A stretch of 64,000 bases of DNA from Sarea resinae (lineage: Eukaryota): positions 372,001-436,000 of the forward strand of contig JAPEUD010000013.1 in NCBI GenBank assembly GCA_026026165.1, written 5' to 3'. Below, piece after piece: positions 14,180 through 63,800 of this stretch (position 1 is its first letter; each line of letters begins with the position of its first letter). A model generated the notes under the pieces. That model saw only the letters and a list, made by a program, of their open reading frames with translations. It was not told the origin of the DNA and searched no databases. The translations under genes and the position numbers were made by a program.

Positions 14180-15370
14180 ATGTTTCGCTCTCTCTGTATC
14201 TGCCTTATTGGCCTATGCCTTGTGGCGTCCTTGGGGTAAGCCTCCTCTATTCCTCACCTACATACTTCTCGTCCATCCAGCCAATGAAAAGGGGAAAAGG
14301 GGAAAAGTAGAAATAGATTGGTGGACTAGTCACTAACAGGAGCCATCACATAGTTCTAATGGAGCCCTCGTCTCCGCACAGTTTGTCCCTGTAGTCCGGT
14401 GAGAACCCTCTTTTTTTTCCCATTTCCTCAAGAAATATATAGGTGGAGTCTTCCAGAAACGCTTTACTGACGAACTTCTCTCTACAGCGGCTTAGCGGCT
14501 GCCTCTACGACGAGTTCTTCGTCTACGCTCCCATATTACACGCTCACAATCACGTACACGGCAGAGGATAATTCTACTACGTCTACCACGTCTACGCCCG
14601 TTTCCACGTCTAGCCTCCCATTTTACACGCTCACGATAACGTATCCAGACAGAGAAGTTCTGCCAGCCTCTACCTCTTCTTCAAATATTTCACAGCCGGT
14701 GGCATCGTCAAATACGACAAGCAACACCACGTACTACGCATCCACGGGCTCGGCCTACACCTCTACTTCTATCTCGAGCTATGGCGCCGTGAACTCGTCT
14801 ACGTATCAAGCCACCGCTCCAACAAGCTTGAACACCACCACACCCATCTCTTCCACTTCGTCTTCCAACACCTCGTCCAACTCGACCCGTTTTCCCTATT
14901 CAGCCTTCACCATCACCCTCCCAACAGCGTACCCAACCTTTACGGCCGAGACGTCGAATGCCACGAAGACAAGCTTGACGTATCTGTCCGTCATGTCCAG
15001 CAGCTCCGTCTACTTGGTCCTCGGAGGGACAGGCGGGCCGCGCCTCCTGACGTCCGGCCTCTCGGCCCCCTACGCCAACTCTTCCACCACCACGTTCGCG
15101 GGCCCGTCCGCCCCGTCCGCGCCGTCCGCGTCCGCCATGCGTCCAACAGCGCACAACGCGAGCTCACCGTATCCGACCGTCTCCCGGCCTACTTCGGCCC
15201 TTGCGCCCCCTCCCTCTCCGTCGGTATCCAACGCTTACCCCTCGTACCAAACATGCGATCTCGCGGCCCCGGAAGTATTGACATTTACCGAGGAATGGGT
15301 GACGACGACGCTGCTGACCATCCTCACGAGCACCACGGGCGTCGTCACGCTCACGCCCTCTTGCTGGTGA
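14180..15370 (+). CDS. Secreted Ser/Thr-rich (mucin-like/cell-wall) protein; may extend to 15829 through an in-frame TGA
   Basis: Signal-peptide-like MFRSLCICLIGLCLVASLG followed by a gtaagc donor, a short second exon (gtgaga donor), then a long S/T-rich frame with a repeated LP(Y/F)YTLTITY motif. Confidence 0.65.
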
Positions 15371-15451
15371 CTAACCGACCGAGCCGCCGAGCTGGACCGA
15401 GTGCCGGCCCCCACCAACAGCAGCACGCATATCCCGTCTCGTGCCCCACGA

Positions 15452-16130
15452 CCTCCTCCTCCTCCTCCTCCTCTTTCTTCTTCTTCTTCTTCTTCTTCTT
15501 CTTCGAGGAGCATGACAAGGCCGACCGAAAGCACAGCCAAGCCGAGCGTCTCCCCCTCTCCTCCTCCTCGAACGACCCCGACCCCAACAACAACGACGAC
15601 CATCACAACCACTCTCAGCCCAACCCTGTGTCCCCAGCTCTTCAACAGCGCGAGCGCTTTCCACAACAGAGCCTGCGCCGTGCCCGATTGTATCGTGCTG
15701 TCCCGCCGCACGGCCACCTGCGGCACGGCGACGGTCATGCGAACCGTCACGCCTGCTTGTACGAGCGCGTGCGGAGGCGGGTGTCAGACGGCGTATGAGA
15801 CTGTGTCTGTTTGTGCGCTTGAGGGCTGAGGTCGCGGGGGTGGGGGTTGTGCGCTGCGTGGGTAGAAGCGGGCTGGAAAAGAGAAGAGAGGGGGGGGGGG
15901 GGGTAGGAGGGGCACTGGAGAGCGACAGGCGGGAAGCGTCCTCAAGCAGTTATGAGAAGGAAAGAAGCAAATGGCAGACAAAGAAAGAAAGAAGACGTCG
16001 AGGGGCGAGAGAGAGAGAGAGAGAGAGAGAAATAGATCAAATACCCGATTCCTGGATCCGACCAGATCGAATCGAATAGAATAGAAAGACCAAAAACCGA
16101 CAGAGCAAGACAGACCAGACAGACCGGACA
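15452..16130. repeat. Microsatellite-rich tract: (CCT)n, (TTC)n, poly-G, (GA)n, (CAGA)n-like
   Basis: Simple repeats seen directly at about 15452-15503, 15890-15903 and 16007-16029. Confidence 0.85.
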
Positions 16131-29622: not shown

Positions 29623-31568
29623 ACGGATAGAGTCATCATCGTTCCATCCCCACTTCTCTCTCAGCTCGTCGTGAAGAAAGCCGACGCGCCATCCAGTCTC
29701 TTTGCGAATCTTGTCGAAAATCTGAAGGACTTCTTCTTGCTCGCGACGCACAACAAGACATTCCGATGCAATGGCTAGAGAGCGGATCGCGACGCTCGCG
29801 ACACCCCTGGTAGTTGATTGCCATATCAGCTTCAATTTCTTGCACCTTATTAGAAAAGCGACAGCGATGGGAATTCACCTGTCTTTAACATGCGCTACAA
29901 TGCCACATATCTGATGTGCGTGCGATAACTGCATATCATGCAATTCGTCCACGTCTGTCGACAGGACTGGATTGGTCTGTGCTAATAAGCACATTGCTGT
30001 GTGATAAAAGAGCCTTGCAACGATTGTCGCCCGTTTAATTAGCCTAGAGACGCATTAGTATCAATCCCGTCGGAGCTCAGGGGCTACAGGAGAGTTGGAC
30101 TGCTAATAGAAGATTCTAGCTTACCAAACCTCCGGAAAAGCAGACTTCGAAGTCGTCTGATAAGGATATAGATAAGCTATGGGATGCATAGTCCGCGGGA
30201 TACACTCGTTCCACGAGTCACACCAGTCTTTCAGCCTCCTCCACTCGTTATACCGATTCTGCAGCCGAATCTGCTCATCTCTCGTCGACGGCTCTTGAAA
30301 ACGAGGTATCGAAGCCCGGAAGTTAGCAATCTTTGCCACGATATAAATGATTCTATAAGTCCACATTTCCTCGCGTCCAGACTCGGTCTCTCGGGAAAAG
30401 TCCATGTCAACGCCCCAGTCGTCCGGCTCCCAAGCCACCTGCCAATTGAAATGGAGACAGCTGAGGAGCTCCATCCCAACGTTCAGCCAGAAGCATGCAG
30501 AGCCAATTCCCGTCGATCGAGCGCTCCACCCGCATTCTTTGATGAGCGCACGAGCACCAGCAATGTGATTCATTCTCTGCGACGCCCGTTCCGACATGAT
30601 CTCGTAGACGTTTAGTATTACGGCTGTCGTTGCACATATCATGGTATCTCGGTTAGGATTCTGGAGCGACTTCAAAAGGCCTCTGGTAGCCGTGTCGTAA
30701 TAATGAAGAGCCTTATCCTCGTGATAAGCCGGATTTACAAGAGTGAGATGACGCGCCCCACAAGCAAGGAAAGCATTCAAGAGCATTGGCTCCCCTAGCG
30801 AATGAAATGGGAGTAGTCGGGAGAACTGAAGCCCGAGTCAATATCCTATAGAAGTAAAAGTTTCAAGGCCTGACTCACATGTTTCATTGAATCCATGCTA
30901 TCCATCCACAAGCCAACTTCTTCCACGAAGACCTGCATGAACAGCACTTCTTCGGGCGAGTTCAGATAATCACGAGTCTCATTTGGCGGCGTCGCCGTCT
31001 GCTCGGGATTGCTATAGGAGGATGGCGGTGGCGGGGGGCCATTTTGAAGTGTGAATGACGAGTCGCCGGCAGCTTGAGAAAGGTGAGGGTGTGCATCCCG
31101 AGATGGAATAGGAAGTTCCCCGTCCGAGGTCTCAGTATATGTCACAGGTAAAAGTGGCTGTATTGGAGGCAGCGCTTGTTGGGAGATCGAATTTGCGCCT
31201 GAAAAGTCGAATGGTAAGTCACCCCTGCTTTGAGTATCGAGATCTGTAGTGAGAACAGCATAACGTCCGACGCCTCCTTTGTATTCAGACGCAATGTCGC
31301 GCGACTCATCTAGGAAATGCACACTCCAGTCATGGGTCGGTGGAATGATGGGCGGCGATTGAACTTGAGTGTCGATAAAATTCAATCGCACACCGCGTTT
31401 ACACAATCGGCTTGATTTTCGACAATTCTGACAATCGGGCAGACCCTCATCACATTTGAGATGCCGTTCCCTGCACGTCAGACATCCTGTCCGAACCCTT
31501 CTGGGGCGACTGACAGGAGCGGTGCCCTCGACAGCAGTCGCATTGCCATTTATATCCGTCGCAGCCAT
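29146..31568 (-). CDS. Zn(II)2Cys6 transcription factor with a fungal-specific TF domain and a C-terminal polyglutamine tail
   Basis: RVRTGCLTCRERHLKCDEGLPDCQNCRKSSRLC; FMQVFVEEVGLWMDSMD; MLLNAFLACGARHL; tail with Q32 and Q20 runs. Confidence 0.9.
29371..29622 (-). repeat. Coding polyQ microsatellites: pure (CAA)20 at 29371-29430 and mixed CAG/CAA x32 at 29527-29622
   Basis: Counted directly from the sequence. Confidence 0.9.
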
Positions 31569-32189
31569 GCGGTTAACCTCCTGACTACCCCGGAAGCACC
31601 ACCATGCAATCCTAGTGTTTACTTTTCCGTCTTCAGTGACTTCGATGGCGATGCACTGGCTCTGTTCCGGGACGGACACGCTTGCTGTAGGGCTGACGGC
31701 TGTTCCACGAGGCCTAAGGAGATCCGCGAGGGGTTTAGAGATCGATGGGAGACACGTCGTAGAGATATGACAAGAAAGATGACTTCGAGGTAGACCAAAT
31801 GTGCTGATTGGCGTAGCCTGAAGAGAAGCCTTTTGCGCCGTGCGCTCAATGTTCAGGCGTTGAAGCGCGCGCTCTGGCAGCTCGCGACGCCCAGGTATAC
31901 AGTGCGATGAGGTTGGCCAACGACTCGACGACTCGACGACAATGATGTCAGATTGCAGACACTGGGCTCATAAGGGTCCGAGTCGCTTGCAGTCGCAGAA
32001 GCTCCACAAGAGCTACAAGAGTTGGGCAGCTTTCTAGATTGTCATGACGGCAGCTCGTATGCAGTACTTTCGTAAGCGCACCGCGTAGCACTTTGGCGCG
32101 CGATATGATGGCAGATCTCAAGGGCGGAGGGGACGCCAGATTAAATTGCGACGGACCGAGAGAGGGGAACAATCATAATATTGTACGGA

Positions 32190-45694: not shown

Positions 45695-46199
45695 TCATTT
45701 CTTCAGGAGGAGATAGATGTAGTCGACACGAAGCGGAGTGAGCTTCTTGTATGGGCCGTCCAGGAAGAGCAACAGTCCGCCGAAGGAGGCGAACACCTTT
45801 CTAAATATGGGGTCTCTTGGTCAGCCTCATGTGTACATCCTTTAAGAGGAGTCCAAGCCAATGGGAAGCAACAAACATCGTATCATTATCTCCTTCCTCG
45901 AAACGATATATCTTCCCATGGCAGACATAGTCGAAGTCATCCGCCAAACTCGACTCTCCCCTGGCCGCTTCGCGCCAACCTTTACCATCATCCTTGGTAC
46001 CGTCCAGAGACAGCGTGGAGGCAAGCACGAGTTGCATTTGGTCATTGACAGCACAAGGATAGAGCTCCGTATTGACATCAAGAGTGAAGACGGTGTCGCC
46101 ATTAGGAGAGCTGCCAGAGAGACGCGATACTCGGTCGTACTTTTGCGCATTTATAGAGGTGACACTGAAAGTATCCTCATAGAGCTGAGAGTCGGACAT
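45695..46199 (-). CDS. RPB8: RNA polymerase I/II/III common subunit RPABC3; 2 exons
   Basis: MSDSQLYEDTF..KYDRVSR..LDVNTELYP..SLADDFDYVCHGKIYRFEEG..|KVFASFGGLLLFLDGPYKKLTPLRVDYIYLLLKK*. Confidence 0.95.
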
Positions 46200-47397
46200 G
46201 GTAGGTGGCAGCAAAAGAGCTAAGATGCACCGCAATGAGATCTAGAAAGTCTTATGGAGTACGTGTTCTTCAGATTGTTTCTTGGGCCGGCTATGGCAAG
46301 TGGTGTCAGGTGAAAGAGAAGGTCGATGTTCTAGTAAATTATTCTTCCGATGCTCTCACTATGCAACGCTGCCGTAAGGGTTGGACGTAGTGAAGGCAAA
46401 CTCAGAAGAGATCAGTAAAGCGGCATGTGCGTACCTGAGCGCAAATTGCGGTCATGGATGGATGAGATAGCCCGAGAGTCTAGAAATCTGACCTAGGGTA
46501 GGCCATAGAGATCAGGCGTGCAGGATTAATCACATACCCACGCAGTAGCCCTCCAGGGCTGGGCGGCCTGATTCGACCATGGCACGCTACATCTGGCCAG
46601 GTCTGACACGCCAGCTGAGGGGTCCGGAGGTTAGTAGCTTCATCTCATACGAACTACGAGCGAAAAACTCTGGTGTACACTGAACAACCACACGATCCTG
46701 GGATAATGCAGGTCTGTCGCCCGCGCGCCAATAATGAGGCTCCTGAATTGTGGAGAAAGTTCCCAATTCTCTGGTCCCAGAACGCCAGGATCCCATGGAG
46801 GCCTGGTGAGCTGAAAGCGCGCGCGTTGATATCGCGCGAAGTGGTGGGGGATCAGGGGGTTTACTGCGCAGTATGCGGCTTGCCATCGCCAATCTGGGGG
46901 ACGTGTTCAATCGCTTGTCGGCCCACTCCACAGCAAGCAAACTACTCCGGAGTAGTACTCGTCGTAAGAGAACTCATCGGGCGCGGGTATGTCCTTACCG
47001 TTTCGGACTCTCGAGCGCTTAAAGCTGGAGAACTACTCCGAGTATAGTGACTACTCCGGTAGTGGCTGGACTTTAAAGGCAGCGAGCGTCGTCAACTGTA
47101 AGCGCACCTAATGTTGACTCTTCACTGTGGTACTGAAAACATCACTGATACACAATCTCAAGTTCTATAGACCGTCCATGTTCTGTAAACGCAGCAAGAG
47201 TCTTACTGCAAGAATGTGCGATCTATAGTCTGGACCCGTGGCGCTTGTATGCTGGCTACGCAACCATCACTACTTCATTCATATTCTAGGTACCTAACCC
47301 TTCAGACTGGAAAACGTCAGCCTCCATAGATTGGACATACGGAGAACATCTACCCCACATCCATTGTTGCCCTGAAAGCTTTGGCAGCCAAGCCAAG

Positions 47398-50300
47398 ATG
47401 AGCATCGACTTTCCCACAACGGAGGAAGACATTCTCCGGTACTGGCAAGAGATTGACGCCTTTCATACGCAACTTCGTTTGACAGAAGGCCGTGAGCATT
47501 TTACCTTTTATGATGGCCCACCTTTTGGTATGTCGTCGTCGACCCTACTGAATGTGTCTCGCGCAGTGGTCACTAATTCGATGGACTCGCAGCAACCGGT
47601 ACGAGTCATTTTCACTTCCGTAGTCGTGTTGCTTTAACATTCTCCTAGGCTTGCCGCACTATGGGCACCTCCTTACCTCCACCGTTAAAGATATCATACC
47701 ACGATACTGGTCAATGAAAGGATACCATGTCATTCGTCGCTTTGGTTGGGATACTCATGGCTTGCCTATTGAGTATGAGATCGACAAGACACTAGGTATC
47801 TCGGGCAGAGATGCTGTCATGCAGATGGGCATAGAAAAGTATAACGCGGAGTGCAGAGCTATTGTCATGAGATATGCCAGCGAGTGGAGACGGACTATCG
47901 AGCGTTTAGGTCGATGGGTCGACTTTGATAACGATTACAAGGTATAATGCAGTTTGGCACCACTCAGCTTGAATTCGTACTCAGGTTGTTTTAGTCGCTA
48001 GATGTCACTTTCATGGAGTCTTGTTGGTGGGTTTTCAAACAGCTCTTTGACAAAGACCAAGTCTATCGTGCCTACCAAATCATGCCCTTCTCGACAGCAC
48101 TCTGTACACCACTAAGCCATATAGAATCGAAGCAGAACGAAAAAACAACCCAAGACCCTGCGATACTGATAGCATTCCCGGTGCTCGGACGCAAGAGCCA
48201 GGAAAGCACTTCGCTTGTAATCTACACGACAACACCATGGACTCTAACGTCGAACCTCTTCATTGCTGTGCACCCCCAATTCAAGTACATTGAGATACTT
48301 GACGAAAAATCGGGAAACCAGTATGTCCTGTTAGAAAGTGGGCTTTCCATGCTCTACAAGGATCTGAAAAAGGCGCAGTACAAAATCACTCAGAAAATCA
48401 CCGGGCAGGACATGATTGGCTGGAAGTACAAGCCTCTTTTTCCTTATTTCGTCGATCGGTACTCCGATTGCTTCCAGGTCATTGGAGCCGACTACGTCGA
48501 GGCTGCCGAGGGCACAGGCCTTGTGCATCAGGCTCCAGCCTTCGGTCAGGAAGATTATGATGCCGCAGTCGCGGCAGGCTTTATCTCTCCAGAGCGTTTG
48601 CCGCCGTGCCCTGTTGATGACAAGGGTCTCTTTACTTTCGAGGTACCAGAATATGTTGGTCAGCATGTGAAGTCTGCAGACAAAGCGATCCTCCGGGACT
48701 TGAGATCTACTGGTCGCCTCTTAGTTGATAGCCAAGTTTTTCATGTGGACAAGTTCTGCTGGAGGTCCGATACTCAGCTCATCAGAAAAGCCGTGTCTTC
48801 TTGGTTTATTCGAGTCACAAATTCAATCCCGGATATGATCAAGAATCTGGAATCGACAACTTGGGTCCCTAACACTGTCAGGGATAAGCGTTTCGCAAAT
48901 TGGATCTCTAATGCCCACGATTGGAACGTTTCCCGAAACAGGTACTGGGGGACTCCGATTCCCCTATGGGTTAGTGAGGACTACGAAGAAGTCGTCTGTG
49001 TTGGCAGCATCAATGAGCTCAAAGAACTTAGTGGCTACACTGGCAAGTTAGAAGACATTCATCGGGACAAAGTCGACGGAATAACAATTCCTTCCAAGCA
49101 AGGAAAGGGACTCCTGCGACGCGTGGATGAGATTTTTGACTGCTGGTACGGAATGTCTTGATCTTATTAGCGTGGAGGCTTACAAACCCAGGTTCGAGTC
49201 TGGAAGCATGCCTTACGCATCCTGCCACTATCCCTTTGAAAATGATGATCAGTTCCGCGGTGGTCGTTTTCCGGCAGACTTTATTGCCGAGGGGCTCGAT
49301 CAAACCCGTGGGTGGTTTTACACTTTGAGTGTTCTTGGAAACAAGCTGTTCCAGGACTCTCCGTTCCGAAATTGCATCGTCAATGGTATCATACTGGCCG
49401 AAGATGGCAAGAAGATGTCCAAGAGCCTCAAGAAATACCCGGACCCCAATACTGTATTAAATCTGTACGGCTCTGACGCTTTAAGGCTCTATCTGATCAA
49501 CTCCCCAGTTGTTCGAGCAGAGTCAATACGCTTCAAAGAATCCGGCGTCAAGGAGGTAGTATCTAGCGTCCTTCTTCCACTGTGGAATAGCTATCGCTTC
49601 TTTTTCGAGCAAGTGACTCTATACAAGAAGAGTACCGGCTGCGATTTCATTGCAGAGCCCGAGCTGACAGAGGGCGGTTTGACCAATGTTATGGACAAAT
49701 GGATCCTCGCGGACTGTCAGAGCTTGTTGCGGTTCATGGACCAAGAGATGCGATGTGAGTAGCATTCTTCTTCCATTGCAACAACATAACTGACTCGTAA
49801 GGCTACCGTCTCTTTGCCGTTGTACCGCGATTGCTACAGGTTATTGACAATCTAACCAATTGGTACATTCGATTCAACCGCAAGAGACTGAAAGGTGTCG
49901 CAGGCCTTGAAACCGAGGACACGAAAGCTGCACTGAATACCCTTTTCCAATTGCTTTTCACAATCGTCCGAGCCATGGCGCCATTCACGCCTTTTATTAC
50001 CGTGCATATCTATGGGCTCCTAAAACCATACCTCGGCGATGCGGCAGCTCAATTCCAAGACTCGAGAAGCGTGCACTTTCTTCCATTTCCGACAGTGCAA
50101 GAGGCGCTATTTGATGAGGTAATTGAAAGAAAGGTTTCTGCAATGCAAAAGGTTATTCAACTTGCTAGGGCGGCCAGGGAGCGTTGCAATATTTCTCTGA
50201 AGACCCCCGTTCTCTCGCTTGTGGTCATTGCAGACACACAATTCATCTCTGACGTGCAATCGCTACAGTCTTATGTGAAGGAGGAACTCAATGTCCGAGA

Positions 50301-50910
50301 TGTCATCTTGACCAGTGATGAAGAGCAATACAACATTTTGCTTGAAGCCCGAGTCGATTGGCCCACTCTTGGCAAGAAACTAAAGAAAGATGTCCAGGTG
50401 GTTCGTAGGGCTCTGCCCAATTTGAGTCAAGAACAGTTGAAGCAGTATTTACAAGACAGGGTGATCACCGTCGACGGAATTGAGCTCAACGAGCACGATC
50501 TGACCATCGTGCGAGTGCTAGGGAAGGAGACCGCCTATGACTTGAACGAGGTTGGGCCTCGGTGGGAAGCGGCTTTCTCGGAGGATGTCATTGTCTTGCT
50601 GGATACTGCCTCGCATGCGGACCTCCTCAACGAAGGACTGGCCCGCGAGATGATCAATCGCATCCAAAGAATGCGAAAGAAAGCTGGCTTAGTACCGACT
50701 GATGACATTCGCATGCAATACGCCATTGTTTCAAATCCCGAGAACGTCGACGTCAATGCAGTGGTGTCTACTAGACAATCGCTGTTCACAAATTCTCTCC
50801 ATAGAAGACTGGAGCAAACCCTAGATAGGGTATCAAGGGAGTCTATCATTGTGGAGGAAAAACAGGCTATTGGAAGCTTGATCCTGAAAGTTCGGCTTGC
50901 TAAAATTTGA
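47398..50910 (+). CDS. Isoleucyl-tRNA synthetase, eukaryotic cytosolic type, strongly diverged (probable second paralog); 6 exons including a 6-nt micro-exon
   Basis: FYDGPPF|AT|GLPHYGH (HIGH), [30 protein letters not shown] (editing), [56 protein letters not shown]. Reading frame intact after splicing. Confidence 0.93.
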
Positions 50911-50995
50911 TAAAATATTCTTTATTAGTTTGCAAGTATCTCTGTCACCTAATGAAGAGACTTTGTTTCTTAAAGGCGTGTTCTAATTGATGTGA

Positions 50996-51565
50996 GACGC
51001 GCTCCAGAATACAAAGATGCAGCACACCAGCACTGACGCCTTGATCGCACACTACCTCTCGCTGTGGATGACCGCTGATACCCGAGCCATCGTTTCTGGC
51101 TCCGAGCCTCAGTACGACCTGATTCGGGCGGTCTGCCGGATGGTGCGATGAATCGATCCTGTCCGGCCGACCGAGCAATTCCAGTCCCTCAATCAGTACT
51201 CCCGCATCCGCCGGCTCGTTGCACAGCGGAAGGGTTTGGAAACGTCGTTTCGCAGGAACGGCTACGAACAGCTCGGTTACAGCATCCTCGCCTGCGAGAT
51301 CGTCAGCGAGATTTTACGAAAAAGGACGACGCTCTTGAAGGAGCTTCAAAAGGAGTAGTATGTGGGACACCCAGTCCGCAAGATCAAGCTGCACCTCTCG
51401 AGCCCCGAAGTCGCCCAGGGCGTAAGAATGGCCGATGATATACCCCACAGCACAGGGGCGCCTTTCGAGACGATGATGACGCTCGCTATGTCCTTGGGAG
51501 GAGATTCGCCAGTGCAACGCAGTCATAAGTATCGTTGCGCATACTACCGTTTGAGGAAGTGGTAG
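50996..51565 (+). pseudogene. C-terminal fragment of a DUF3435-type tyrosine recombinase (Starship captain family), pseudogenised
   Basis: One frame reads DALQNTKMQHTSTDALIAHYLSLWMTADTRAIVSGSEPQYDLIRAVCRMVR*IDPVRP...ELQKE*YVGHPVRKIKLHLS...AYYR. It resembles the recalled DUF3435 pattern LQN..QH.S..F.KHYL...DT.AIV.G.EPQ..L.RAACRMSR.IDP.RP. Stops at 51149 (TGA) and 51356 (TAG). Confidence 0.7.
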
Positions 51566-51844
51566 CTGCCCTGAGGCCACTGGCTATCAAGCGGTTGAGA
51601 GACATCATTCTATAATCGGCGGTCGCGTAAGCCGACCAATAAGTTCTGAATACGCCCTTCGTGTCGGTAAACAGCGGAAACGGATCACTGTTTGCTTGTA
51701 CTAAGGGAAGTGGGAGTCTCGCACCAGAAGCGCGTTCAAGTATTTGCCCAGGAGACCTGATAAAGCACTCTTTGACTTTGTCAAACGCGGGAGTATTTTA
51801 AGCAGCTATTCCTCCGAGCTAGCAACCCTTCCTTACTTCTCCGC

Positions 51845-52552
51845 CTACTTCACAATCGCCATCAAAAAACCATCATAATCTTTCGCCCCGACCGTCTGCA
51901 TGACAACTGCTTCCACCCGACCGTCTTCTTCGACCCTCTCCACCAAGGAGACCGCCCTTTCGTCCCTCTTCTGCGGCCCCACGATGCCACTTGCCAACAA
52001 CTCCCTCACCACATTGTCCACATAAAGCACACTCCCCTTCCCCTTCGACAACCTCACCCCATAATCGAAATAATTCCATTGGTTGTCCCAGTCTGCATCG
52101 ATGAAGACGAAATCAAACCTTTCCCTCTCGCCTTTCTCAATCTCCGCCGCTAGTTTCGGCAGAACATCCAAACCCGCTCCAAGCACCACGTCGACCTCAT
52201 CAGGAACCTTCACGCCGGCAAATCGCAGGTTCTCAATTGCAACATCGCGCCTCCCGCTTTCGACCTCGATGCTCGTGACCTTTCCCCCGGTGCCATCCCT
52301 TCCTCTAAGGGCTTGAGCAAACCAGATGCTTGAGTACCCGCCCAAGGTGCCAATTTCCAGGACACTCCGCGCCCCGCACATTGTGGTAAGCAAGGAGATG
52401 AACTTGCCCTGGACCGGGGAGACGGCCACCATTGGCATGCCATGCTTGGTGCTGTTCTCGTAGGCGTGCGTGAGGCCCGGTTGGGCGGAGATAAGGTGGG
52501 ATTCTGTATAGGACTCTACCGCGTGGGTATGCACGACTTTCTCTAGAGACAT
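51845..52552 (-). CDS. O-methyltransferase family 3 (caffeoyl-CoA/MdmC-like); intronless
   Basis: AVSPVQGKFISLL..SVLEIGTLGGYSSIWFA (SAM motif I)..FDFVFIDADW..VDNVVR..MQTVGAKDYDGFLMAIVK*. Confidence 0.92.
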   Translation of the reverse strand: MSLEKVVHTHAVESYTESHLISAQPGLTHAYENSTKHGMPMVAVSPVQGKFISLLTTMCGARSVLEIGTLGGYSSIWFAQALRGRDGTGGKVTSIEVESGRRDVAIENLRFAGVKVPDEVDVVLGAGLDVLPKLAAEIEKGERERFDFVFIDADWDNQWNYFDYGVRLSKGKGSVLYVDNVVRELLASGIVGPQKRDERAVSLVERVEEDGRVEAVVMQTVGAKDYDGFLMAIVK

Positions 52553-53483
52553 TTTAGTGGCGAGTGAAACTGACGGAGCTGTCGGTCGATGGGATGATGG
52601 CAGGGTGATGCTGGTAAGGATGAGTGGGAAGAAAAGCTGTTGCTTTGCGGTCAGGTGGCGGAAAAGATATGGAGGACGTATCAGCATCGGATCAGTCAAA
52701 TAGGAAGAATGAGTGGAGCAACAAAAGGGAGATAGCTGTGATAGTTGATATATAGTAGCTTATCCTCCAGGGCTGTCCGGACTTGAGGTATGAAGCTCGG
52801 CTCGGAATAATAAAGCCAAGAGCTTCTTTTCACTCTACTGAATAAAGAAGTCCCAGTCCATACTGCTGCTCCACTTCACTGCACTTACACCACATTCGGC
52901 GTGCTGGATCTCTAGCAGCCCATGCGAAGCTTACCAGCCAAGCAACAGCAGCGAATCATCCAAATAAGAACCAAAGGATTGCAACATGATCTCCCATCTA
53001 CGGTACGAATACTGCGCGGTGAATAGAGTGCAGCCGTTCGGGATTAGTCCGTCGCAAATACACGGCCCCTGGCTCATGGACCGCAGCCAGGATACAAAAA
53101 CTCTCTACCCCGAGTGTATCAATCTCCACAGTAAAGATACAACTAATTCAGACTGATGAAAGCCAAGGTAGCTATGGGTCACTCGACTACCTTCCTATCA
53201 TCATTATAGAAGCTGATCAATTGGATGACTTAGTAGCCTATATGCACATGTCTTAAGAGGTGGAGCTATCTCACAAAGTAGGGCGGAGCTCGAGCATGTT
53301 GTATGTGGCTTACATGGAGCTCGGAGATGTCTCGATCACCGAGCATGATCCCCGCCATCTCCGACCTCAAGGACACAGCTCTCTGGACACGTCCCCGGTC
53401 TCCGAGCATCTCGCAATCTGATCTCTTTTCTGACAAGTCTCGGAGCTGATGCGTATTCTCATCGGAATCTGCGATATTCCGAA

Positions 53484-55972
53484 ATGTTGTCAAATTCGCG
53501 GGCTCGTATCTCCGGATCTCCCAAAGAAAGGCCACCCAATGAAACCAAGCGAAAGCGGAAAGCACTTTCTTGCTATGATTGTCGACGCCGCAAATTGAGA
53601 TGCGACCGCGAATATCCTTCATGCAGCCGATGTCGAAAAGCCGGACAGGCGAATTCTTGCTCCTATGACGAGCGACCTCTCAAGCCTAGGCACACTGAAT
53701 CAAGCGCTCCGTCATCGCCAAAGCAGAGCACAACTACGCCCCAGGCTCCATTGGATTGGTCCTCTTCAAATCCAGTAGCACATGTGAAGCAGATCAATCG
53801 AATAGAGAATAGGCTTTCTACTTTGGAGGCAAGTCAGACTTCTGGGACCTGGCAAGTTTTCGGTCAAGTGTCGTCTGCCACCAAGGCCAGCGAACAGCGG
53901 CCTCCCATCAAGGCCGACAACGAAACTTTCTTGACATGTCCACGTGATTCAACGCCGACCGAGACGGTCATATTTCGAGGCGGAAGTTTCAAGACACAGT
54001 ACTACGGCGGTAGTAATCCTACTAGTCTAATTGCTCATGTAGGGTGCCCGGGCCTCTTTCATGGTCATAAAACTAATGGCCATAGTTTCCAGAACTTCGA
54101 TCGTTCATGAAGGAGGCCATCATGCACCACACTTCTCTTCCACGCGTTCAACGAGACTTGAAGGCGTTGCAGGTAAGATGGAAAGGCGATAAGACCAGCG
54201 TGTTACCTTTGACAGACTTGGAGCTCCTTAAACTCCTCCCTGATCGGGAGATCGTAGATTATCTTGTCCACCTTTACTTCGATACCTTCGAGACTCTGTA
54301 TCGGATTCTACACCGCCCAAGCTTTTGGAATGAATATCAAATGTTTTGGGAGGATCATCAAGCGGCGAAACCTGCCTTCGTTATCCTTATGTTACTGATG
54401 ATGGCCGCAGTGAGTTGTCTTTCTACCAAAGAACAGCCAACATATCTCGGTGACAGTGCGATAGCTCGGGAGCGCGCAGTGTTGTGGATTGAGGTTTCAG
54501 AATGGTGGCTGGGACGTCATAGCCAGAAGAATATTTACCTCGCCATATGGCAGATTCGCTGTCTATTAATTTTGGCGAAACAAGTCAACATCGTGAAGAA
54601 GAAGCGAACTTGGACGGCAGCGGGCACTCTTGTAAGAGAGGCAATGTCTGCAGGTTTTCACCGCGATCCGAGCCTACTTGGAGAAAAGGTGTCTGTTTTC
54701 AATCAGGAGATGAGACGGCGATTGTGGGCAACAATAATTGAATTGGAGCTGCAGGCTTCCGTCGACAGGGGAATGCCCTCTGCGTCGGCAGGCATTCCCT
54801 CCGACAGTGCTACAGTTCTCAATGTCGATGACGAAGATCTTACTGTGGAGTGTGCCAGATTGCCGATATCAAAATCGACGGAATATACTGCAAGCTCATA
54901 CCTTCATATATCGAGACTCAGCTTCTCTTTACGAGTTTCGTTGAACTCGCGAGTGAACGATCTGAGCTCTCCCATGCTGTACGAGGAAGTGTTGAATTAT
55001 GAAGAGATGATCACAAAAGAACTTCGGAGGATCCCTCCACGGCCTGGACATGGAGAAACCCAAGGCATCCGAGGACTACCTGTGGTGGTGAGAACACTAC
55101 TTGATGTTCAGCTTCAACAATTTTTGATCTTGCTGCACGCTCCATTCGCTCGGCAGGCAGACACTAATTCACGTTACTCGCTGTCGCGGATGATATGTGT
55201 TAATGCTGCCGCTAGCATTCTGAAGCAACATTCGCAACTCACTAGCTCTGGAAATTTCCTGCTATTGCTTCTCCGACATGACTACTTCAGGGCAGCCTTG
55301 ATTATATGTCACAACATGTACATTTCTATCAGCATCCAGAGTATGTGCATCACGAGCACCAGTTATATTCCTGTTGCACCTGCTTATGTATCAAACAGAC
55401 GACCTTTTCCTCAATGCGAATAGCAATGCGTTCATTCAATACGTCGAGGACGCTCTTACTATGCTAGAGGACAGGATTACACGACTCGGCACAGGGTATC
55501 CACATTATTGGTACATCTCCGCCGCTTGTGCCCTCCTTCGGTCGGCAGTTTCACCCGAGGAGTCAACGGCGCAGAAACAGCAAGCCATCGACAGAATTGC
55601 GAGACAATATTACCGCGTGCTAGCATCGCAGGAAGATTTCCTCAGAGCCAAGGAAAAGATCATCCCTATCTGTCTCAATAAGGCAAGAGAAACGATCACC
55701 AATCCCGGAAAGGGTTTGCTAATCGTAGCCTAGAATAACGCAACAGGAGATCAGCCAGAGATTTCCATGAACATGACGAATACTCCTGGATTATCCTTTC
55801 TCGATGCAAGCGTGCCACAGGTATGCATTCCAACTATCTTCCCCTGATGATTACTACTGTTCTCACTGATAAGCAAAAGTCGCCGTTCGAGCGGGCAGAT
55901 CTGCCTCTAGAGGAGTTCTATTTTGGTGATCCAGCCGCGTGGACGTTTGATAATCTTTGGGAAATCGAGTAA
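53484..55972 (+). CDS. Zn(II)2Cys6 transcription factor with a Fungal_trans domain; 5 exons
   Basis: RKRKALSCYDCRRRKLRCDREYPSCSRCRKAGQANSCSY; FKTQYYGGSNP; LYRILHRPSFW; AMSAGFHRDP; EMRRRLWATI; ends DPAAWTFDNLWEIE*. Confidence 0.92.
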
Positions 55973-58055: not shown

Positions 58056-58520
58056 TCAATTGTTCTCCTGCCATCTACAGACACAATATCAGCTATCACG
58101 CTTGCAAATGTGACCTCACCATACTAGATAATTACCTGTGTCCGCACTCTGTGCAGTGATAGAAAATGGTAGTTCCTTCGTCTGCGCTTCTCAACTGCGC
58201 TTGAGACCAATTGACTTCTTTCGCATCACAGTTTGCACAGGAGACATTGATTCGTAAGTTCCCCATGTCCTGAGGTGTAACGGCTTGGATATTTGATGTG
58301 AGTTTGTTGCGTAATCGGGAGGGGAAATTTTCGGACGTCGTCATCCGTGATTGAAGCATCTTATCTAGAAAGAACTTTGCTTAGTCGCTCGAACTTAGAC
58401 AGGCAAAAGCATCGAGCCGTTCGAACTTTTGGTGGACTTTCCACACTGATCACACTGTACAAGTTCATTTGTCGATTCATCGAGTAGATTTCCACAGTCG
58501 TTGCAGAATTGAATCGCCAT
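58056..58520 (-). CDS. RNA polymerase I subunit A12 (RPA12)-like protein with a TFIIS-type C-ribbon, divergent; 3 exons
   Basis: MAIQFCNDCGNLLDES..VQCDQCGK|..FPSRLRNKL..CANC..QLRSADEGTTIFYHCTECGHR|WQENN*. Confidence 0.85.
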
Positions 58521-59569
58521 GCTGAATGCTTCAGAACCAAAGGCCTCGCAAGCCTAACTCTGATAGGTATTCGAGACAGTTGAGGTGTATTGACCAGATA
58601 GATCTCCGCTCTCAGGACTCGGGCTCGACTTGAAGTACAAAATTCGCTAATTCTCTGTAGGCTAAAGGTTCTACATCACACTTACAACGTGATATGCAGG
58701 GTCCTTAGCTGTTTTAGTATTGCACGTGATAATCTAGTTTGTTAAGAGTCTAGAGGTAAACTTAAGTCTCTACCTTTACTCTAGTAGGTAAGGATAGAAG
58801 CAACATAAGTTAAAGGTAAGTACTAAGCACACTATTTAGGCCCTACTCTAAGACTAGTTATAAAATGTATAAATTGTTTAATATTATTTAAAAGAGAATA
58901 AGTAATTAGAGCTAGAGAGTATCTAAGTACTCTAGATTACTCTTAATATATAGTAAGTAGTACTACTTATATTTAAACTTTTATCTATCTCTTAATAAAG
59001 TATATTACTACTTATACTAAGTCTAGACTTTCTAGCTATAATAAAGACCTAAAGATAGGTAGTATAAGATAGTATACTTCTATTTTAAGCTAAGCTAACT
59101 TACTGTTTAGTACCTTAGGTTCTATATAGGTAGTGGCTTGCTAAATTACACTCTAAGTAAGTAATAATAAGTACTATAATAAATTAATTACTACCTGCCT
59201 AATACTTATATAGCTAGGTATATTAGCAAAAATGTAAAATGTTTTATACACCTATAGTGTTAGAACATAAGAATTTATAGTGGCTTTATTAAGTTCTTAT
59301 TTACTATATATTAGAAGGTAGCACAAAGATATAAGTAGAGAAAGGTGCTAAAGAAGTATTATAGTATAGAATAATTATATATTATATAAACTTAGAGATT
59401 CTAGCTATAGAGGTATAAGGTAGTCATTATATAGATATAGCTAACTTACTAGAAACTTCTAGTGATAAGTAATTACATAAGTGATTTGTAATCAATAAAC
59501 TAGCAATAATATATGCTTTGTAAGAAAGTTAAGAGATAGTTACCTTAGTATCACATTAGGTAATCATAA

Positions 59570-60337
59570 AACTATGCTAAAACTGTGTTAAAACTGTGTT
59601 AAAACTGTGTTAAAACTATGTCATTACTACTATAGGTGTCAACACCTATAGAAATTGTGAGACAGTACTACAATAGTGTTGATTTTCATCACAGTTACTA
59701 ACACCTATATGTGTTGAACACCTCCTAGGTGTTGACACTGCTTGAAACCACTTGACTTTTTAACACCTATAGAAAAATCAGGCGAAAAAAAAGTAAATTG
59801 AGTACAGTAGGAATCGATCCTAGGAGCATTATATAATCAACTTATTGATGTTACACTAACTAGGCTATATGATTTGTTAGAAAATCTAACTCTCTAGTAG
59901 TATATAGCCTACTAAAACCATGATAATATTATTTTAACATAGAGATTTTCAAATTTTATCAAGATTTAGAGCCACCTAAATTCACTGAGACGTTCGATGA
60001 AAAAGGTCATGATTACATAAGCTTACATAATATTTGCAAAAATCGTTGAAAGTCTCAGTGAATATTAGCTTATTTGAAATTTTAAGAAATATCTACTACT
60101 ACTATAACACCTACTATTAGTTTTAACACTGTGTTAACACCTACAAGAGGTTTCTAACACCTATAGAAGGTGTTGACACCACCTATAGTTACAGGTACTA
60201 CTAGGTCTCAACACCTACTATTAGTTTTAACACTGTTACAACACTGTCTCAACACCTATAGAAGGTGTTCAACACCTATAAGAGGTTTCTAACACCTATA
60301 GGAGGTGTTAGATACTATTAATACTGTAACAACACAG
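59570..60337. repeat. Unclassified repeat with an 11-mer tandem (AAAACTGTGTT), many AACACCTA(T/C)A units, a tRNA-like segment and an internal inverted repeat
   Basis: aaaactatgctaaaactgtgttaaaactgtgttaaaactgtgttaaaactatg; aacacctata at 59641, 59700, 59762, 60157, 60251, 60271 and 60291. Confidence 0.7.
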
Positions 60338-60824
60338 TGTCAGGATATATAGGGTAGGCACTAAAGTATATAACTTTCATGTTATAGAAGTTCTATAGGT
60401 GTCTAAGATATTCTATAGACTTCTAGAGAATTATAGGATGCTTAGTCAGCATAGCTATAGAATCTTCTAGAATGTTCTATAAGATTCTATAGGGTTCTAC
60501 TATGTTCTATTAGCTTCTATAGCTATGTAGAAGCTTCTAGATGTATCTATACTGTTATGTGACATTCTGTAACAGTCTAGATACTTAAGAGTGACTAGAA
60601 TTAAGGTTATAATTCTAACACACCCTCTTAAGCTTAATTCTATAGGATAGGTATGCAATTTAGAACACCTATAGAACTTGGCTTTTTGTAACAGTTGCTA
60701 TAGGTACGCAGTTTTATGCACCTATAGAAATTGCATGTTCTTTAGGTGTAGGCTGTATCTAAATAGCCTTTAGGACTTCTAGCCACTTTTAAGTGCTAAG
60801 TGGCTTAGTAAAGCCGTCTGCTAG
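60338..60824 (-). mobile_element. 3' end of a Ty1/Copia LTR retrotransposon (RNase H tail, PPT, 3' LTR 60338-60620), RIP-mutated
   Basis: Minus strand LADGFTKPLST (60824-60792) is the Copia RNase H ADxxTK motif. Purine tract TAAGAGGGTG abuts an LTR with termini TGTTAGAA...TCCTGACA. Confidence 0.8.
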
Positions 60825-63800
60825 TGTGATAGGGTAAACTGGCAATAGTTTAGTCATCAGGCATTAGTGGTGGGGTTGTGTTCCTTAGGGGGTTAGAAAG
60901 GAGGCATTATTAGTTCTTTATACATGCATTCAGTTATTAGTTTTCTAGCAGTCAGTTAAGCAAGCAGTTAGCGTGTTAGTTTTCTTCTCTTCTTCTTATT
61001 ACTTAGTTACTAGGCTATAGGCTGATACCTCCTATTAATTAATACGCTTGTTCTGCCACCTATTTAAGTTCTCTAAGACATATTAGTAAGTAGTAAGACC
61101 TAAGACAGTGACACACTTAACAACTATTAAGTATAGCAGCGCTATTACAATTTAGCAACTCCTATATCTTTAAGACTATCTAGCACTTATCTAGTGCAAT
61201 CTAGTTTCTTCTCTTATATTAGTGACCTATATAGGGCTTAAACAACACAGATTTAACTAGAAAGTGCTCTATAAATAAGTATAAACACTGCTTAAAAGAT
61301 ATATAGAAGGGTTACTAGATCTATAAGGCTAGTACAAAACCTAGCCTATATAATTAGGACTCTAGAAGATTAGCATAATATAAAAGAGATAAGAAGTAGG
61401 AATTACAAAGACCTAGAAAAGAATTTAGAAACAAAGATATAAAGTTTAGAGATTACACTATAAGAAATTCTTCTAGACTAACTAGATCTTATTGTTAAAA
61501 TAGTTAGGTGTTAGCTATTTATCTAAAGAGGTAAGAGGTAATCCTTAATAGCTTATAGTTTATTTAGTAATAAGGTAGTTTATTAAGCGTTATATAAGAA
61601 GAATAAATAGAAGGAACAGCTTTATTATATGCTAAAGAGTGTGCTAAGAGATATTTAATACACTACTAGAGATAAGTAGATTAGTAAGAGTATAATAAGG
61701 TCTAAATATAAGAGAGTTAAAAACAGCATATAGAATAAGTGTCTTTATAAGTTAATAAGATTTATTTAGGCAATTATTTAAGAGATAGTAAACTCTGTTA
61801 TAACTATAATTATTACTGCTATATAAATGTGTTTCTCTCTACACTTTTAAAGAGACAGTTTACTAGAATTACTAACACTACCTATAATAGCTGCTAGCAC
61901 TATATTCTTACTTACTATATATTACCTTACTTCTATACTATTCTCTAGGACTTATAGTGTACTTTACTTTAATAAGGTAAACGCAATAGAGTTTTTTAAG
62001 AGGTATAAAAGACTATATAAAGATTACTAGCTTAACTAGACTAAGATATTTAAGCAGCTTCTATATTATTATAAGAGTATTATATCTTATAGTATTAAGA
62101 CTATACTAGAGTATCTTATAGATTAGGATAAGTTTAAGAAATTACTGCTAAAAGATTACTCTAATTAGGATATAGAGTAGTAAATTAACTCTTAAGCTTA
62201 CTTTAAAGCCTTTAAAAAGAAACTCTATTTAAATATAGAAGAGATCTATTAATATTATTATTAGTTCTAGAGTATCTCTTAAGCTCTATACTAGAAAAAC
62301 AAGCTTAATACCTATACCTATATATTATAGTTTCTCTAAAGCCTTTCTTAAGATATCTAAGTTAAAGTTATTATATATAGCTATATTAACTTAGATAATT
62401 ATAACTCTACTAATATTAACTTTAAGAAGATCTTTAATATTGCTATTAAATAATGTTAATCTATATAGGCACTATAAAAGCTAGATAAGACTAAGCTAAT
62501 AAAGATAGTAAAAACCTTAATTAAAGGATAATATCTAGCTCTAAAGGCTATAGTAGTAGGACTACTCTAACCTCTAGTTATATAAGATTATATAGAAAGA
62601 ATAATAAGTAAGAAGGTTAATAAGGTTATAGATAAATTAGTAGATAAGTTAGCTAGCTTAATAATTCTAATTAAGGTAGTTATAGCAAGTGCTATAAATA
62701 TTACTAAGCTCTTTACTTAGATACTATCTTTTATCTTAAAAGCTATAAGCGCACTAAACTACTAGATTAGCTAGCAGAATAATAGAATAGATCTAGCTTA
62801 TAATACAAACTATACTTAATTAACTAGGTGTTTTAGATATAGTGACTAACGCTATAGATTTGCTAATTGCTTATTAATATAGCAGCTCTTTATAAGTAGG
62901 AAGATTTATTTTAATAAGCATTATTAAATATATTAGGGTCTTAAAAGGCAAGGTAGAATAGAGTTATATATTTCTCCTAGCAAATATTAAGCTCTCTTTA
63001 TTAATAGAGAATAGAAAAAGATATATAATAAGAAGAAGAAGTAACTAGGCCTTAGCTTAGCAGTTAACTTAGTAAGAGTTAGTTCTATTTATACAGTAGA
63101 TTTTAAACTAGATAATATAGATATAGAAGCTAATAATTATAACTAATTAAATATCTATTTAGTAAGATAACTTAAGAGAATCCTTAGATAAGGATCTAAC
63201 TCTAATATATAGAAACCTATATAGGACCTAGATACTAGAGTCTATAAGAGGCGAATTTAAGAGAAAGAAAAGTTACCTATAGCTAAGAATATCTACCTTA
63301 GAATATACTAGAGCAGTTGTGTTCTTAAGAAGAGAGATATAGTTTATTATAAAAAACAGCCTCTATAATATTCTAGCCTAGCTAGTAGTTCTAAGAAAAG
63401 AGTAGAGTTTACTAAGCTAGAGCTAATAGATAAGGTAGAGAAGATATATTAATAAAAGATTTATTAACGCTAATTATCTAATTACTTTAAAGAAGATACT
63501 AACCTTACTTCTCTTATTAATATAATACTAGATTAGTAGCTTAACTATATTATTATTAAGGATCTTCTTTTAAATACACCTAAAGTTTAGAAGCTTTTCT
63601 TTAAGAACCTTAGAGAAGAGTTATACTCTTTAGGTAGAAGATTAGAAGGTTATCTTATAGCTAGATAGTATAATATAGACTACCTAGTAATAGTTAAAAA
63701 GATAACAAGTAATAATTACACTAAGGAGAAAATACTAAATTCTATATTATATACTACTAAGTGTATAATAGTAGAAGTAAGTATTAAAAGAAAAGAGAAT

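Follow-up and report, generated by a model that had tools for sequence, protein, structure and literature searches.

The window, the whole stretch of DNA that was analysed, consists of 64,000 nucleotides of Sarea resinae, and all coordinates given here refer to it. Three neighbouring genes are its main subject: one for a cytosolic isoleucyl-tRNA synthetase (IleRS), one for a family-3 O-methyltransferase (OMT) that converges on the IleRS gene, and one for a Zn2Cys6 transcription factor, hereafter the regulator, which is transcribed away from the OMT gene. A relic of a recombinase gene lies among them (Table 1). The IleRS is not the canonical fungal ILS1 product, referred to here as the A type, but a member of a divergent and patchily distributed clade of fungal cytosolic enzymes, referred to as the B type. 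A preliminary description of this DNA had proposed that the three genes form a cassette that senses, inactivates and bypasses an IleRS inhibitor. The evidence favours, with a probability of about 0.55, a juxtaposition in which an accessory or transferred B-type IleRS gene lies beside an unrelated OMT-regulator pair.

Table 1. Positions, strands and main properties of the features of the window
Feature	Position	Strand	Properties
RNA polymerase subunit Rpb8	45804..46241	-	last core gene upstream of IleRS; Pfam RNA_pol_Rpb8, E 2e-33
B-type cytosolic isoleucyl-tRNA synthetase	47398..50910	+	six exons; spliced model agrees with the NCBI protein letter for letter
DUF3435 (Crypton/Starship-captain type) tyrosine recombinase relic	50996..51355	+	5'-truncated, frameshifted
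Family-3 (cation-dependent, catechol/CCoA-type) S-adenosylmethionine O-methyltransferase	51845..52552	-	intronless, one open frame, 235 aa
Divergent intergenic region, OMT/Zn2Cys6	52553..53483		931 bp; X2 RNA-library contigs cover 52440-52795
Zn2Cys6 transcription factor	53484..55972	+	exons roughly 53484-54041, 54086-55363, 55407-55682, 55734-55818, 55878-55972
Rpb9/TFIIS-type zinc-ribbon gene	58135..58553	-	between regulator and AT-rich block; Zn_ribbon_TFIIS, E 9e-16; Zn_ribbon_RPB9, E 4e-6; two adjacent open reading frames
AT-rich block resembling repeat-induced point mutation (RIP-like)	59001..64000		GC 0.28; TpA/ApT 1.71; (CpA+TpG)/(ApC+GpT) 0.51

All five introns of the IleRS gene run from GT to AG, and splicing of the exons (47398-47527, 47593-47598, 47649-47941, 47995-49145, 49192-49754 and 49802-50910) yields exactly the 1083-residue NCBI protein M1819_001308 (P0001), which belongs to a metagenome-assembled genome of Sarea resinae. 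The second exon is a micro-exon of 6 nt (CAACCG) that encodes the Ala-Thr pair of the PPFATGLPHYGH segment, just before the HIGH motif. The Pfam domain tRNA-synt_1 (PF00133) is found on four exons, and Anticodon_1 (E 2e-21) and DUF5915 (E 5e-24) are also present. With the yeast IleRS structures 7d5c, which contains reveromycin A, and 8wnd, the alignment is continuous from residue 4 to residue 1082 with E = 0, and the domain order is the same over the full length. The HIGH-type motif, here HYGH, and the KMSKS motif are both in place, H49, H52 and K601-M-S-K604 being present in the window enzyme and in at least 51 of the 56 members of the B clade, and CP1 editing motifs, including TTTPWT, can be recognized in an unscored reading of the translation by eye. 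The catalytic motifs, the CP1 editing domain, the anticodon-binding domain and the C-terminal extension are those of a class Ia eukaryotic cytosolic IleRS. The gene is intact, as the preliminary description held, and to judge from its sequence it looks like one for a functional enzyme.

Near-identical pieces of a neighbouring Nudix gene, the IleRS gene, the 5' region of the OMT gene, the 3' end of the regulator gene and the Rpb9-type gene occur in run X2, a wood-decay metatranscriptome. Since one X2 contig runs through the IleRS intron at 47942-47994 unspliced, this library shows the presence of the organism and the splicing of the regulator, not the expression of IleRS. Runs X3 and X4 contain next to no sequence words of this stretch.

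The relationships of the IleRS were traced with a 388-residue exon as the query, and every B-type protein among the best 120 matches ranks above the A-type ones. After the protein itself, the closest matches are from Hypoxylaceae, with 81-83% identity over the query and 76% over the full length, followed by other Sordariomycetes at 68-79% and by Talaromyces verruculosus and Myotisia sp. at 77%. The canonical enzymes of the lichen-forming and related classes, which are the expected kin of Sarea, share only 59-63% with the same query. In a quick LG+G4 tree built from 82 of these 120 matches, from which 38 nameless A-type metagenome rows were omitted, the window IleRS falls inside a clade of 56 rows with an SH-aLRT support of 100 and a stem of 0.28. 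The same B clade is recovered in a 40-row tree under LG+C20 with posterior mean site frequencies (PMSF), with a support of 100 and a stem of 0.35. In the PMSF tree Sarea is sister to Talaromyces (84), within a group supported at 96 that also contains Plectosphaerellaceae, Diaporthales, Phialemonium and Hypoxylaceae. In these trees the window enzyme stands apart from the A-type proteins of Pycnora, Trichoglossum, Candelina, Lobaria, Penicillium and Trichophyton, and does not group with A-type ILS1. The phylogeny that the preliminary description had called for bears out its view of a divergent IleRS, since a patchy clade with full support contains the window protein. The term paralog that was used there holds at the level of the gene family, a second copy in the Sarea genome being putative.

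The B type is common but patchy in Sordariomycetes and sporadic elsewhere. The 56 B clusters among the best 120 matches comprise 47 named Sordariomycetes, three other named fungi (Talaromyces, Myotisia and this Sarea) and six nameless entries, and some of the holders are associated with plants, insects or humans, for example Verticillium, Metarhizium, Sporothrix and Madurella. The subclades of B mix orders. Fusarium groups with Eutypa, Epichloe groups with Sporothrix schenckii and Pyricularia, and Sporothrix has two different B types. This mixing of orders fits either transfers or many losses. When the Sordariomycete B sequences, a group named after the tree had been seen, are forced into one clade in an approximately unbiased (AU) test, the cost is 29.9 log-likelihood units and p-AU is 0.049. 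Below the B clade stands a grade of five sequences, from Rasamsonia emersonii, Piccolia, Sarcosagium, Chaenotheca and Phylliscum, which may be fast-evolving A-type genes because they retain A-like residues at the signature sites of the two types. Two different B-type enzymes (P0024 and P0045) are also found in Dichotomopilus funicola, where they belong to separate Chaetomiaceae subclades.

The micro-exon is a further feature of the lineage. Exactly the two residues that it encodes are missing in 20 of 56 annotated B proteins and in none of 117 A proteins, and two more B proteins read into the intron. The missing Ala-Thr pair fits a micro-exon which is common to B genes and often missed by gene predictors, and points to a systematic mis-annotation of the family. 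A micro-exon that seems to be common to the B genes argues for their common descent at the level of DNA. Another peculiarity of annotation concerns the A type: dozens of metagenome IleRS entries of about 935 residues (930-939 aa; for example P0065, P0072, P0085 and P0114) group with the lichen-fungal A-type proteins, and appear to be fungal genes that a prokaryotic gene finder predicted and truncated at an intron.

No paper on this fungal IleRS lineage was found among the open-access papers of PMC and in bioRxiv. The available portion of the review PMC9437257 lists no fungal IleRS duplicate, and a paper on xylomyrocins (PMC9371744) has only a citation of a bacterial IleRS paper.

Comparison of the 117 A proteins with the 56 B proteins, in yeast numbering, gives 54 positions where one residue is shared by at least 95% of the A proteins and is retained by no more than 20% of the B proteins. 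Since many of these sites are fixed to a new residue in B, they speak for a functional shift and subsequent purifying selection, and not for decay. The co-crystal paper PMC7955072 names 16 residues of yeast IleRS as contacts of reveromycin A, of which 14 are unchanged in B and, likewise, in the window enzyme, while F191 and R454, which in the yeast enzyme also touch the 3' end of the tRNA, are replaced. F191 is Met in 54 of the 56 B rows and Ile in the other two, one of which is the window enzyme, whereas 110 of the 117 A rows have Phe. At R454, 52 of the 56 B rows, the window enzyme included, have His, whereas Arg is retained in 112 of the 117 A rows. As described in the available text of PMC7955072, F191 is part of a hydrophobic sandwich that stacks on reveromycin A, and the F191A mutant binds the drug less well; R454 forms an ionic pair with the C1 carboxylate of reveromycin A, which mimics a contact to A73 of the tRNA. 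Other B-specific changes nearby are Y197E, D199M/T/L, Y398D, P399K, P407Q and Y410R, of which the window enzyme shows Y197E, Y398D, P399K, P407Q and Y410R relative to S. cerevisiae ILS1. The 54 B-signature sites are not enriched near the 16 contacts along the linear sequence, the p values being 0.89, 0.57 and 0.16 for windows of 3, 5 and 8 residues. A B-type IleRS of this kind would charge tRNA-Ile as an extra copy, and its altered acceptor-end pocket would lower its sensitivity to some inhibitor of the tRNA site, or would specialize the enzyme in another way. The suggestion in the preliminary description that the enzyme could be a resistant target finds some support in the replacement of F191 and R454 in nearly all B rows, and is weakened by the 14 retained contacts and by the lack of enrichment of signature sites near the contacts.

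The position of the gene also differs from that of canonical ILS1. Merged gene models place A-type ILS1 directly downstream of USO1 in Squamulea, a Teloschistalean lichen fungus, and in Ophidiomyces, an Onygenalean, and another places it upstream of SFI1 in Pseudogymnoascus, a Leotiomycete. The fused public models P0245, P0315 and P0295, in which ILS1 is joined to USO1 or SFI1, are themselves probably merged neighbours. Taken together, the three merged models appear to reveal a gene order USO1-ILS1-SFI1 that is conserved across three classes. A tblastn search of the window with the USO1 and SFI1 parts of these models finds neither gene, and the IleRS gene lies instead between the Rpb8 gene and the DUF3435 relic; it is therefore not at the ILS1 locus of its relatives, a point on which the preliminary description had made its proposal depend. 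The gene would have come to its present locus by insertion or transfer and not by descent at the canonical ILS1 locus.

The relic that adjoins the 3' end of the IleRS gene, between the stops of IleRS and OMT, confirms the earlier report of a recombinase remnant inside the trio. Its scored part is a fragment of 51 residues (50996-51148) that matches Pfam DUF3435 with E 9.3e-9 at profile positions 216-266 of 418, and its continuation in another frame, to about 51355, is an unscored reading of the translation by eye. This truncated gene may be the scar of a mobile element. In matching the DUF3435 family it resembles the recombinases of Starship captains and Cryptons, as these are presented in the available parts of PMC10104507 and bioRxiv 10.1101/2021.12.13.472469. 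Unlike those elements, it represents only about a third of a gene and is frameshifted, no terminal repeats bracket the IleRS gene, and element boundaries cannot be drawn. Neither an intact DUF3435 recombinase at one end nor defined element ends are present, and the only repeat found around the IleRS gene, a 27-nt pair with an 81% match, is unconvincing and likely due to chance. The orientation of the relic is such that the OMT side, and not the IleRS side, would lie downstream of the captain.

The OMT gene is a single frame, as had been described, and its stop lies 934 bp from that of the IleRS gene. The product matches Methyltransf_3 (PF01596) with E 4e-27 and 95.2 bits, against a cut-off of 22, over residues 29-219, and belongs to that family. 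Among solved structures the closest is 3dul, from a putative bacterial O-methyltransferase (E 8e-40, residues 10-235), and a FIDAD motif is seen in the alignment of the two. With 3dul and with the caffeoyl-CoA and norbelladine enzymes it shares a full-length match to the Pfam family; to our knowledge, the fungal orthologue group to which it belongs has no characterized member.

The regulator is a genuine member of its family, with Zn_clus (E 2e-8) and Fungal_trans (E 1e-15). Its ATG is on the opposite strand from that of the OMT gene, so that the shared divergent region of about 930 bp noted before is confirmed. The exons were mapped by tblastn of the homologues P0347, P0349 and P0352, and are approximate in the 3' part. 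A GT..AG joint from 55818 to 55878 in an X2 contig shows that the regulator transcript is spliced. An in-frame TAG at 55731-55733, which would cut about 55 residues if left unspliced, lies in a stretch of 51 nt (55683-55733) with no counterpart in the closest homologue; this stretch can be read as a GC..AG intron, including a CTAAT branch site. Because the TAG lies within this putative intron, the regulator gene is taken as probably intact.

The relatives of these two genes are distributed quite differently from the B-type IleRS. Among the best 120 matches of the OMT are Hypocenomyce scalaris at 86% identity, metagenome proteins at 70-82%, other Lecanoromycetes at about 70% and Eurotiomycetes at 57-69%; the only Sordariomycete is Fusarium oxysporum at 60%, and none of the 50 named holders of a B-type IleRS appears. 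The best representatives of the regulator range from 70% to 50% identity, and its best named kin are from Lepidopterella (70%), the Aspergillus flavus group (57%), Penicillium citrinum and P. hetheringtonii (54%) and Chaenotheca (52%). Of 19 regulator relatives looked up, 11 are named, and these include Cirrosporium, Bathelium, Xylographa, Neofusicoccum, Lambiella, Aulographum and Xylona in addition; none of the 11 is a Sordariomycete or a B-type IleRS holder. The similarity of the OMT to MMC08_005217 (P0122) of Hypocenomyce scalaris is well above that of other Lecanoromycetes, and either this gene is unexpectedly close in the two fungi or the 30-kb contig that carries MMC08_005217 is from a Sarea-like fungus in the sample.

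In P. citrinum the regulator (KAJ5216750.1) and the OMT (KAJ5216751.1) have consecutive accessions, as they do in XP_056495029.1 and XP_056495030.1, and in P. hetheringtonii the OMT (KAJ5600900.1) is followed by the regulator (KAJ5600901.1). These consecutive accessions are read as adjacency of the genes. No B-type IleRS from either species is among the best 120 IleRS matches. The closest matches to the regulator in Xylographa soralifera (46%) and Lambiella insularis (43%) do not adjoin the OMT gene, being located on different contigs or a long way from it. Seventeen metagenomic OMT loci, with OMTs 33-73% identical to that of the window, contain neither an IleRS nor this regulator in any case, and queries with Rpb8, Nudix, Hikeshi and GDA1 find nothing in them; six of the loci hold at least 5 kb on at least one side, and the OMT proteins of 80-82% identity (P0123-P0127) are not among them. 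The OMT and the divergently transcribed factor would be a separate module of two genes that has a distribution of its own, vertical in appearance, and the regulator probably controls the OMT, because they share a promoter region and their adjacency is conserved. Nothing ties this pair to the IleRS gene.

That the three genes nevertheless act as one co-inherited unit, with the regulator as sensor, the OMT as detoxifier and the IleRS as bypass, is very improbable. They do lie within 8.6 kb, the divergent IleRS differs from the canonical type at two residues that contact an inhibitor, and a CCG-N2/3-CGG site is found both upstream of the IleRS gene (46998) and in the OMT-regulator spacer (53034), with one 12-mer shared. 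The shared 12-mer, however, is within the range of shuffled sequence, the maximum over 200 shuffles being three, and a relic of a mobile element stands between the IleRS and OMT genes. The taxa that hold the IleRS do not overlap with those that hold the OMT or the regulator in the lists compared, the OMT-regulator pair occurs in Penicillium without a B-type IleRS among the best IleRS matches, and none of the 17 metagenomic OMT loci has an IleRS. As far as these comparisons reach, no linkage of the three genes is conserved elsewhere. The eukaryotic IleRS inhibitors named in the preliminary description carry carboxyl or amino groups, and we know of no evident substrate for a catechol-type OMT among them. 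The alternative that was offered with the cassette, namely that the genes are what remains of a biosynthetic cluster for an isoleucine mimic whose backbone genes were destroyed in the RIP-like block or lie beyond the end of the window, is scarcely credible. Such clusters typically include resistance genes, tailoring methyltransferases and Zn2Cys6 regulators, and a RIP-like block does begin about 3 kb past the regulator and runs off the window. Against this, the scanned reading frames of the window include no backbone or other tailoring domain, an Rpb9-type core gene is interposed between the regulator and the block, the reading frames of 59-64 kb have no scored domain relics at E up to 1, and the OMT and regulator appear to have been inherited vertically and stand in Penicillium as a pair on their own. 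Nothing inside the window supports a cluster remnant.

The main rival of the juxtaposition is a replacement, in which the B-type enzyme is not a spare for resistance but the only cytosolic IleRS of Sarea, a transferred or paralogous copy having taken over the housekeeping role while the canonical ILS1 was lost. A search for an A-type gene bears on it, which was made with the first 578 residues of the Pycnora A-type protein against proteins of at least 1013 aa and whose best 120 matches are of 79-88% identity. No Sarea resinae protein is among them, even though Xylona, Sclerophora, Trichoglossum, Candelina, Vezdaea and Lichina are there at 83-87%. The source run covers the contig at a word depth of about 357, so that gross incompleteness of the assembly is not an obvious excuse for a missing ILS1, and the B-type gene, with all its catalytic motifs intact, sits among core genes and has an ordinary GC content at third codon positions (GC3). 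The negative result is nevertheless confined to those 120 matches, with an effective cut-off near 79% identity, and a shorter, fused or more divergent Sarea protein would escape it. In Myotisia sp. PD_48, the sole genome in which both types are seen, a B copy (P0028) co-exists with an A copy (P0318), which shows that B can be an extra gene. Sarea itself probably keeps a canonical copy too, and replacement, for all that speaks for it, is considered doubtful.

Several observations weigh against an accessory or transferred IleRS beside an unrelated pair. The absence of a Sarea A-type protein from the matches leaves the extra copy putative in this species. The AU result is borderline, and an old paralogue with many losses remains compatible with the tree. 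The GC3 of the IleRS gene (0.53-0.55) is within the range of its neighbours (0.44-0.68) and gives no compositional sign of a recent transfer. Adjacency of the OMT and regulator genes is seen in two of the four testable species, and these two are sister species of Penicillium. The comparison is centred on the OMT loci, and in the neighbourhoods of some B-type IleRS genes of other fungi a link to the OMT family may exist. Finally, with 14 of 16 contacts unchanged and signature sites not enriched near them, the case for resistance rests on two residues. A bolder extension of the juxtaposition, put forward tentatively and considered unlikely, sees in the B type a naturally inhibitor-tolerant lineage that spreads horizontally in Pezizomycotina. 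Its gene would act on its own to confer resistance to inhibitors of the tRNA site such as reveromycin, and DUF3435/Starship-type elements might be its vehicles.

The surroundings of the trio are in part as described before. Upstream of the IleRS gene are core genes for a sulfite reductase, Clr2, an SNF2 helicase, a serine carboxypeptidase, a Zn2Cys6 factor, WD40 proteins, an SPB4-type helicase, GDA1/CD39, Hikeshi, a Nudix protein and Rpb8. The RIP-like block on the other side is confirmed by its composition, the corresponding values for positions 1-55000 being GC 0.51, TpA/ApT 0.66 and (CpA+TpG)/(ApC+GpT) 1.24, and it continues beyond the end of the window. Both flanks of the trio are thus real, but the Rpb9/TFIIS-type gene separates the regulator from the block. 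The statement that no polyketide synthase, nonribosomal peptide synthetase or terpene backbone gene is in the window also holds: no such Pfam domain is found in 104 of the 115 stop-to-stop reading frames of at least 110 aa. Eight of the other 11 frames are parts of the trio and were scanned against Pfam separately, and three antisense frames inside the IleRS gene were left out.

A few other features of the window are recorded here. The Rpb9/TFIIS-type gene lies in moderately AT-rich DNA, where X2 RNA-library contigs of 90-95% likeness show joints. Inside the RIP-like block, 59585-60310 contains short arrays of a AACACCTATAGAAGGTGTT-like palindromic unit at spacings of 20 and 95 nt, together with a 34-nt inverted pair. 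The kilobase 15001-16000 is GC-rich (GC 0.64 against about 0.51 around it) and has long overlapping reading frames on both strands without a Pfam match. The Zn2Cys6 factor among the core genes, at 30124-31967 on the minus strand, has Zn_clus and Fungal_trans_2 and a weak likeness to the N-terminus of the regulator's homologues. No tRNA genes were found in the window.

It is established that extra aminoacyl-tRNA synthetase copies point to inhibitor resistance and to natural products that are still to be discovered. A fungal precedent for a synthetase copy as a resistant target is the extra lysyl-tRNA synthetase of the cladosporin cluster. That gene lies inside a polyketide synthase cluster, whereas the scanned reading frames contain no backbone gene over the 47 kb upstream and the 13 kb downstream of the window IleRS, which is thus not in or beside the biosynthetic cluster of an inhibitor within the 64-kb window. 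A closer parallel is found in bacteria, where IleRS2, mupM and the plasmid-borne mupA also represent a second, divergent and patchy IleRS lineage that some genomes carry alongside the housekeeping type. In the available parts of PMC10485003 and PMC9437257, the accepted role of IleRS2 is insensitivity to inhibitors. The two bacterial lineages are about 30% identical, according to the portion of PMC9437257 at hand, while the fungal A and B types are about 60% identical and are both of the eukaryotic cytosolic type, the window enzyme standing on a long separate stem from canonical Pezizomycotina ILS1. Unlike bacterial IleRS2, the fungal B type has no known resistance phenotype, producer cluster or plasmid, and its co-existence with the housekeeping type is seen in one fungal genome.

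The comparison of sequences shows a second kind of fungal cytosolic IleRS, the B lineage, which is coherent and conserved, is spread patchily and has a putatively altered acceptor-end pocket. A useful negative result for its neighbours is that the roles of detoxifier and sensor for the IleRS should not be assigned to the OMT and the regulator. If the tentative extension were true, the B type would be the eukaryotic counterpart of bacterial IleRS2 and mupA, and an intrinsic tolerance to IleRS-directed antifungals would be predicted in its many carriers. A lower sensitivity of the B type to inhibitors would affect how promising IleRS is as an antifungal target and would provide a handle for target-directed genome mining, and the lineage would then offer a clear-cut example of the spread of an essential translation gene from one fungal class to another.

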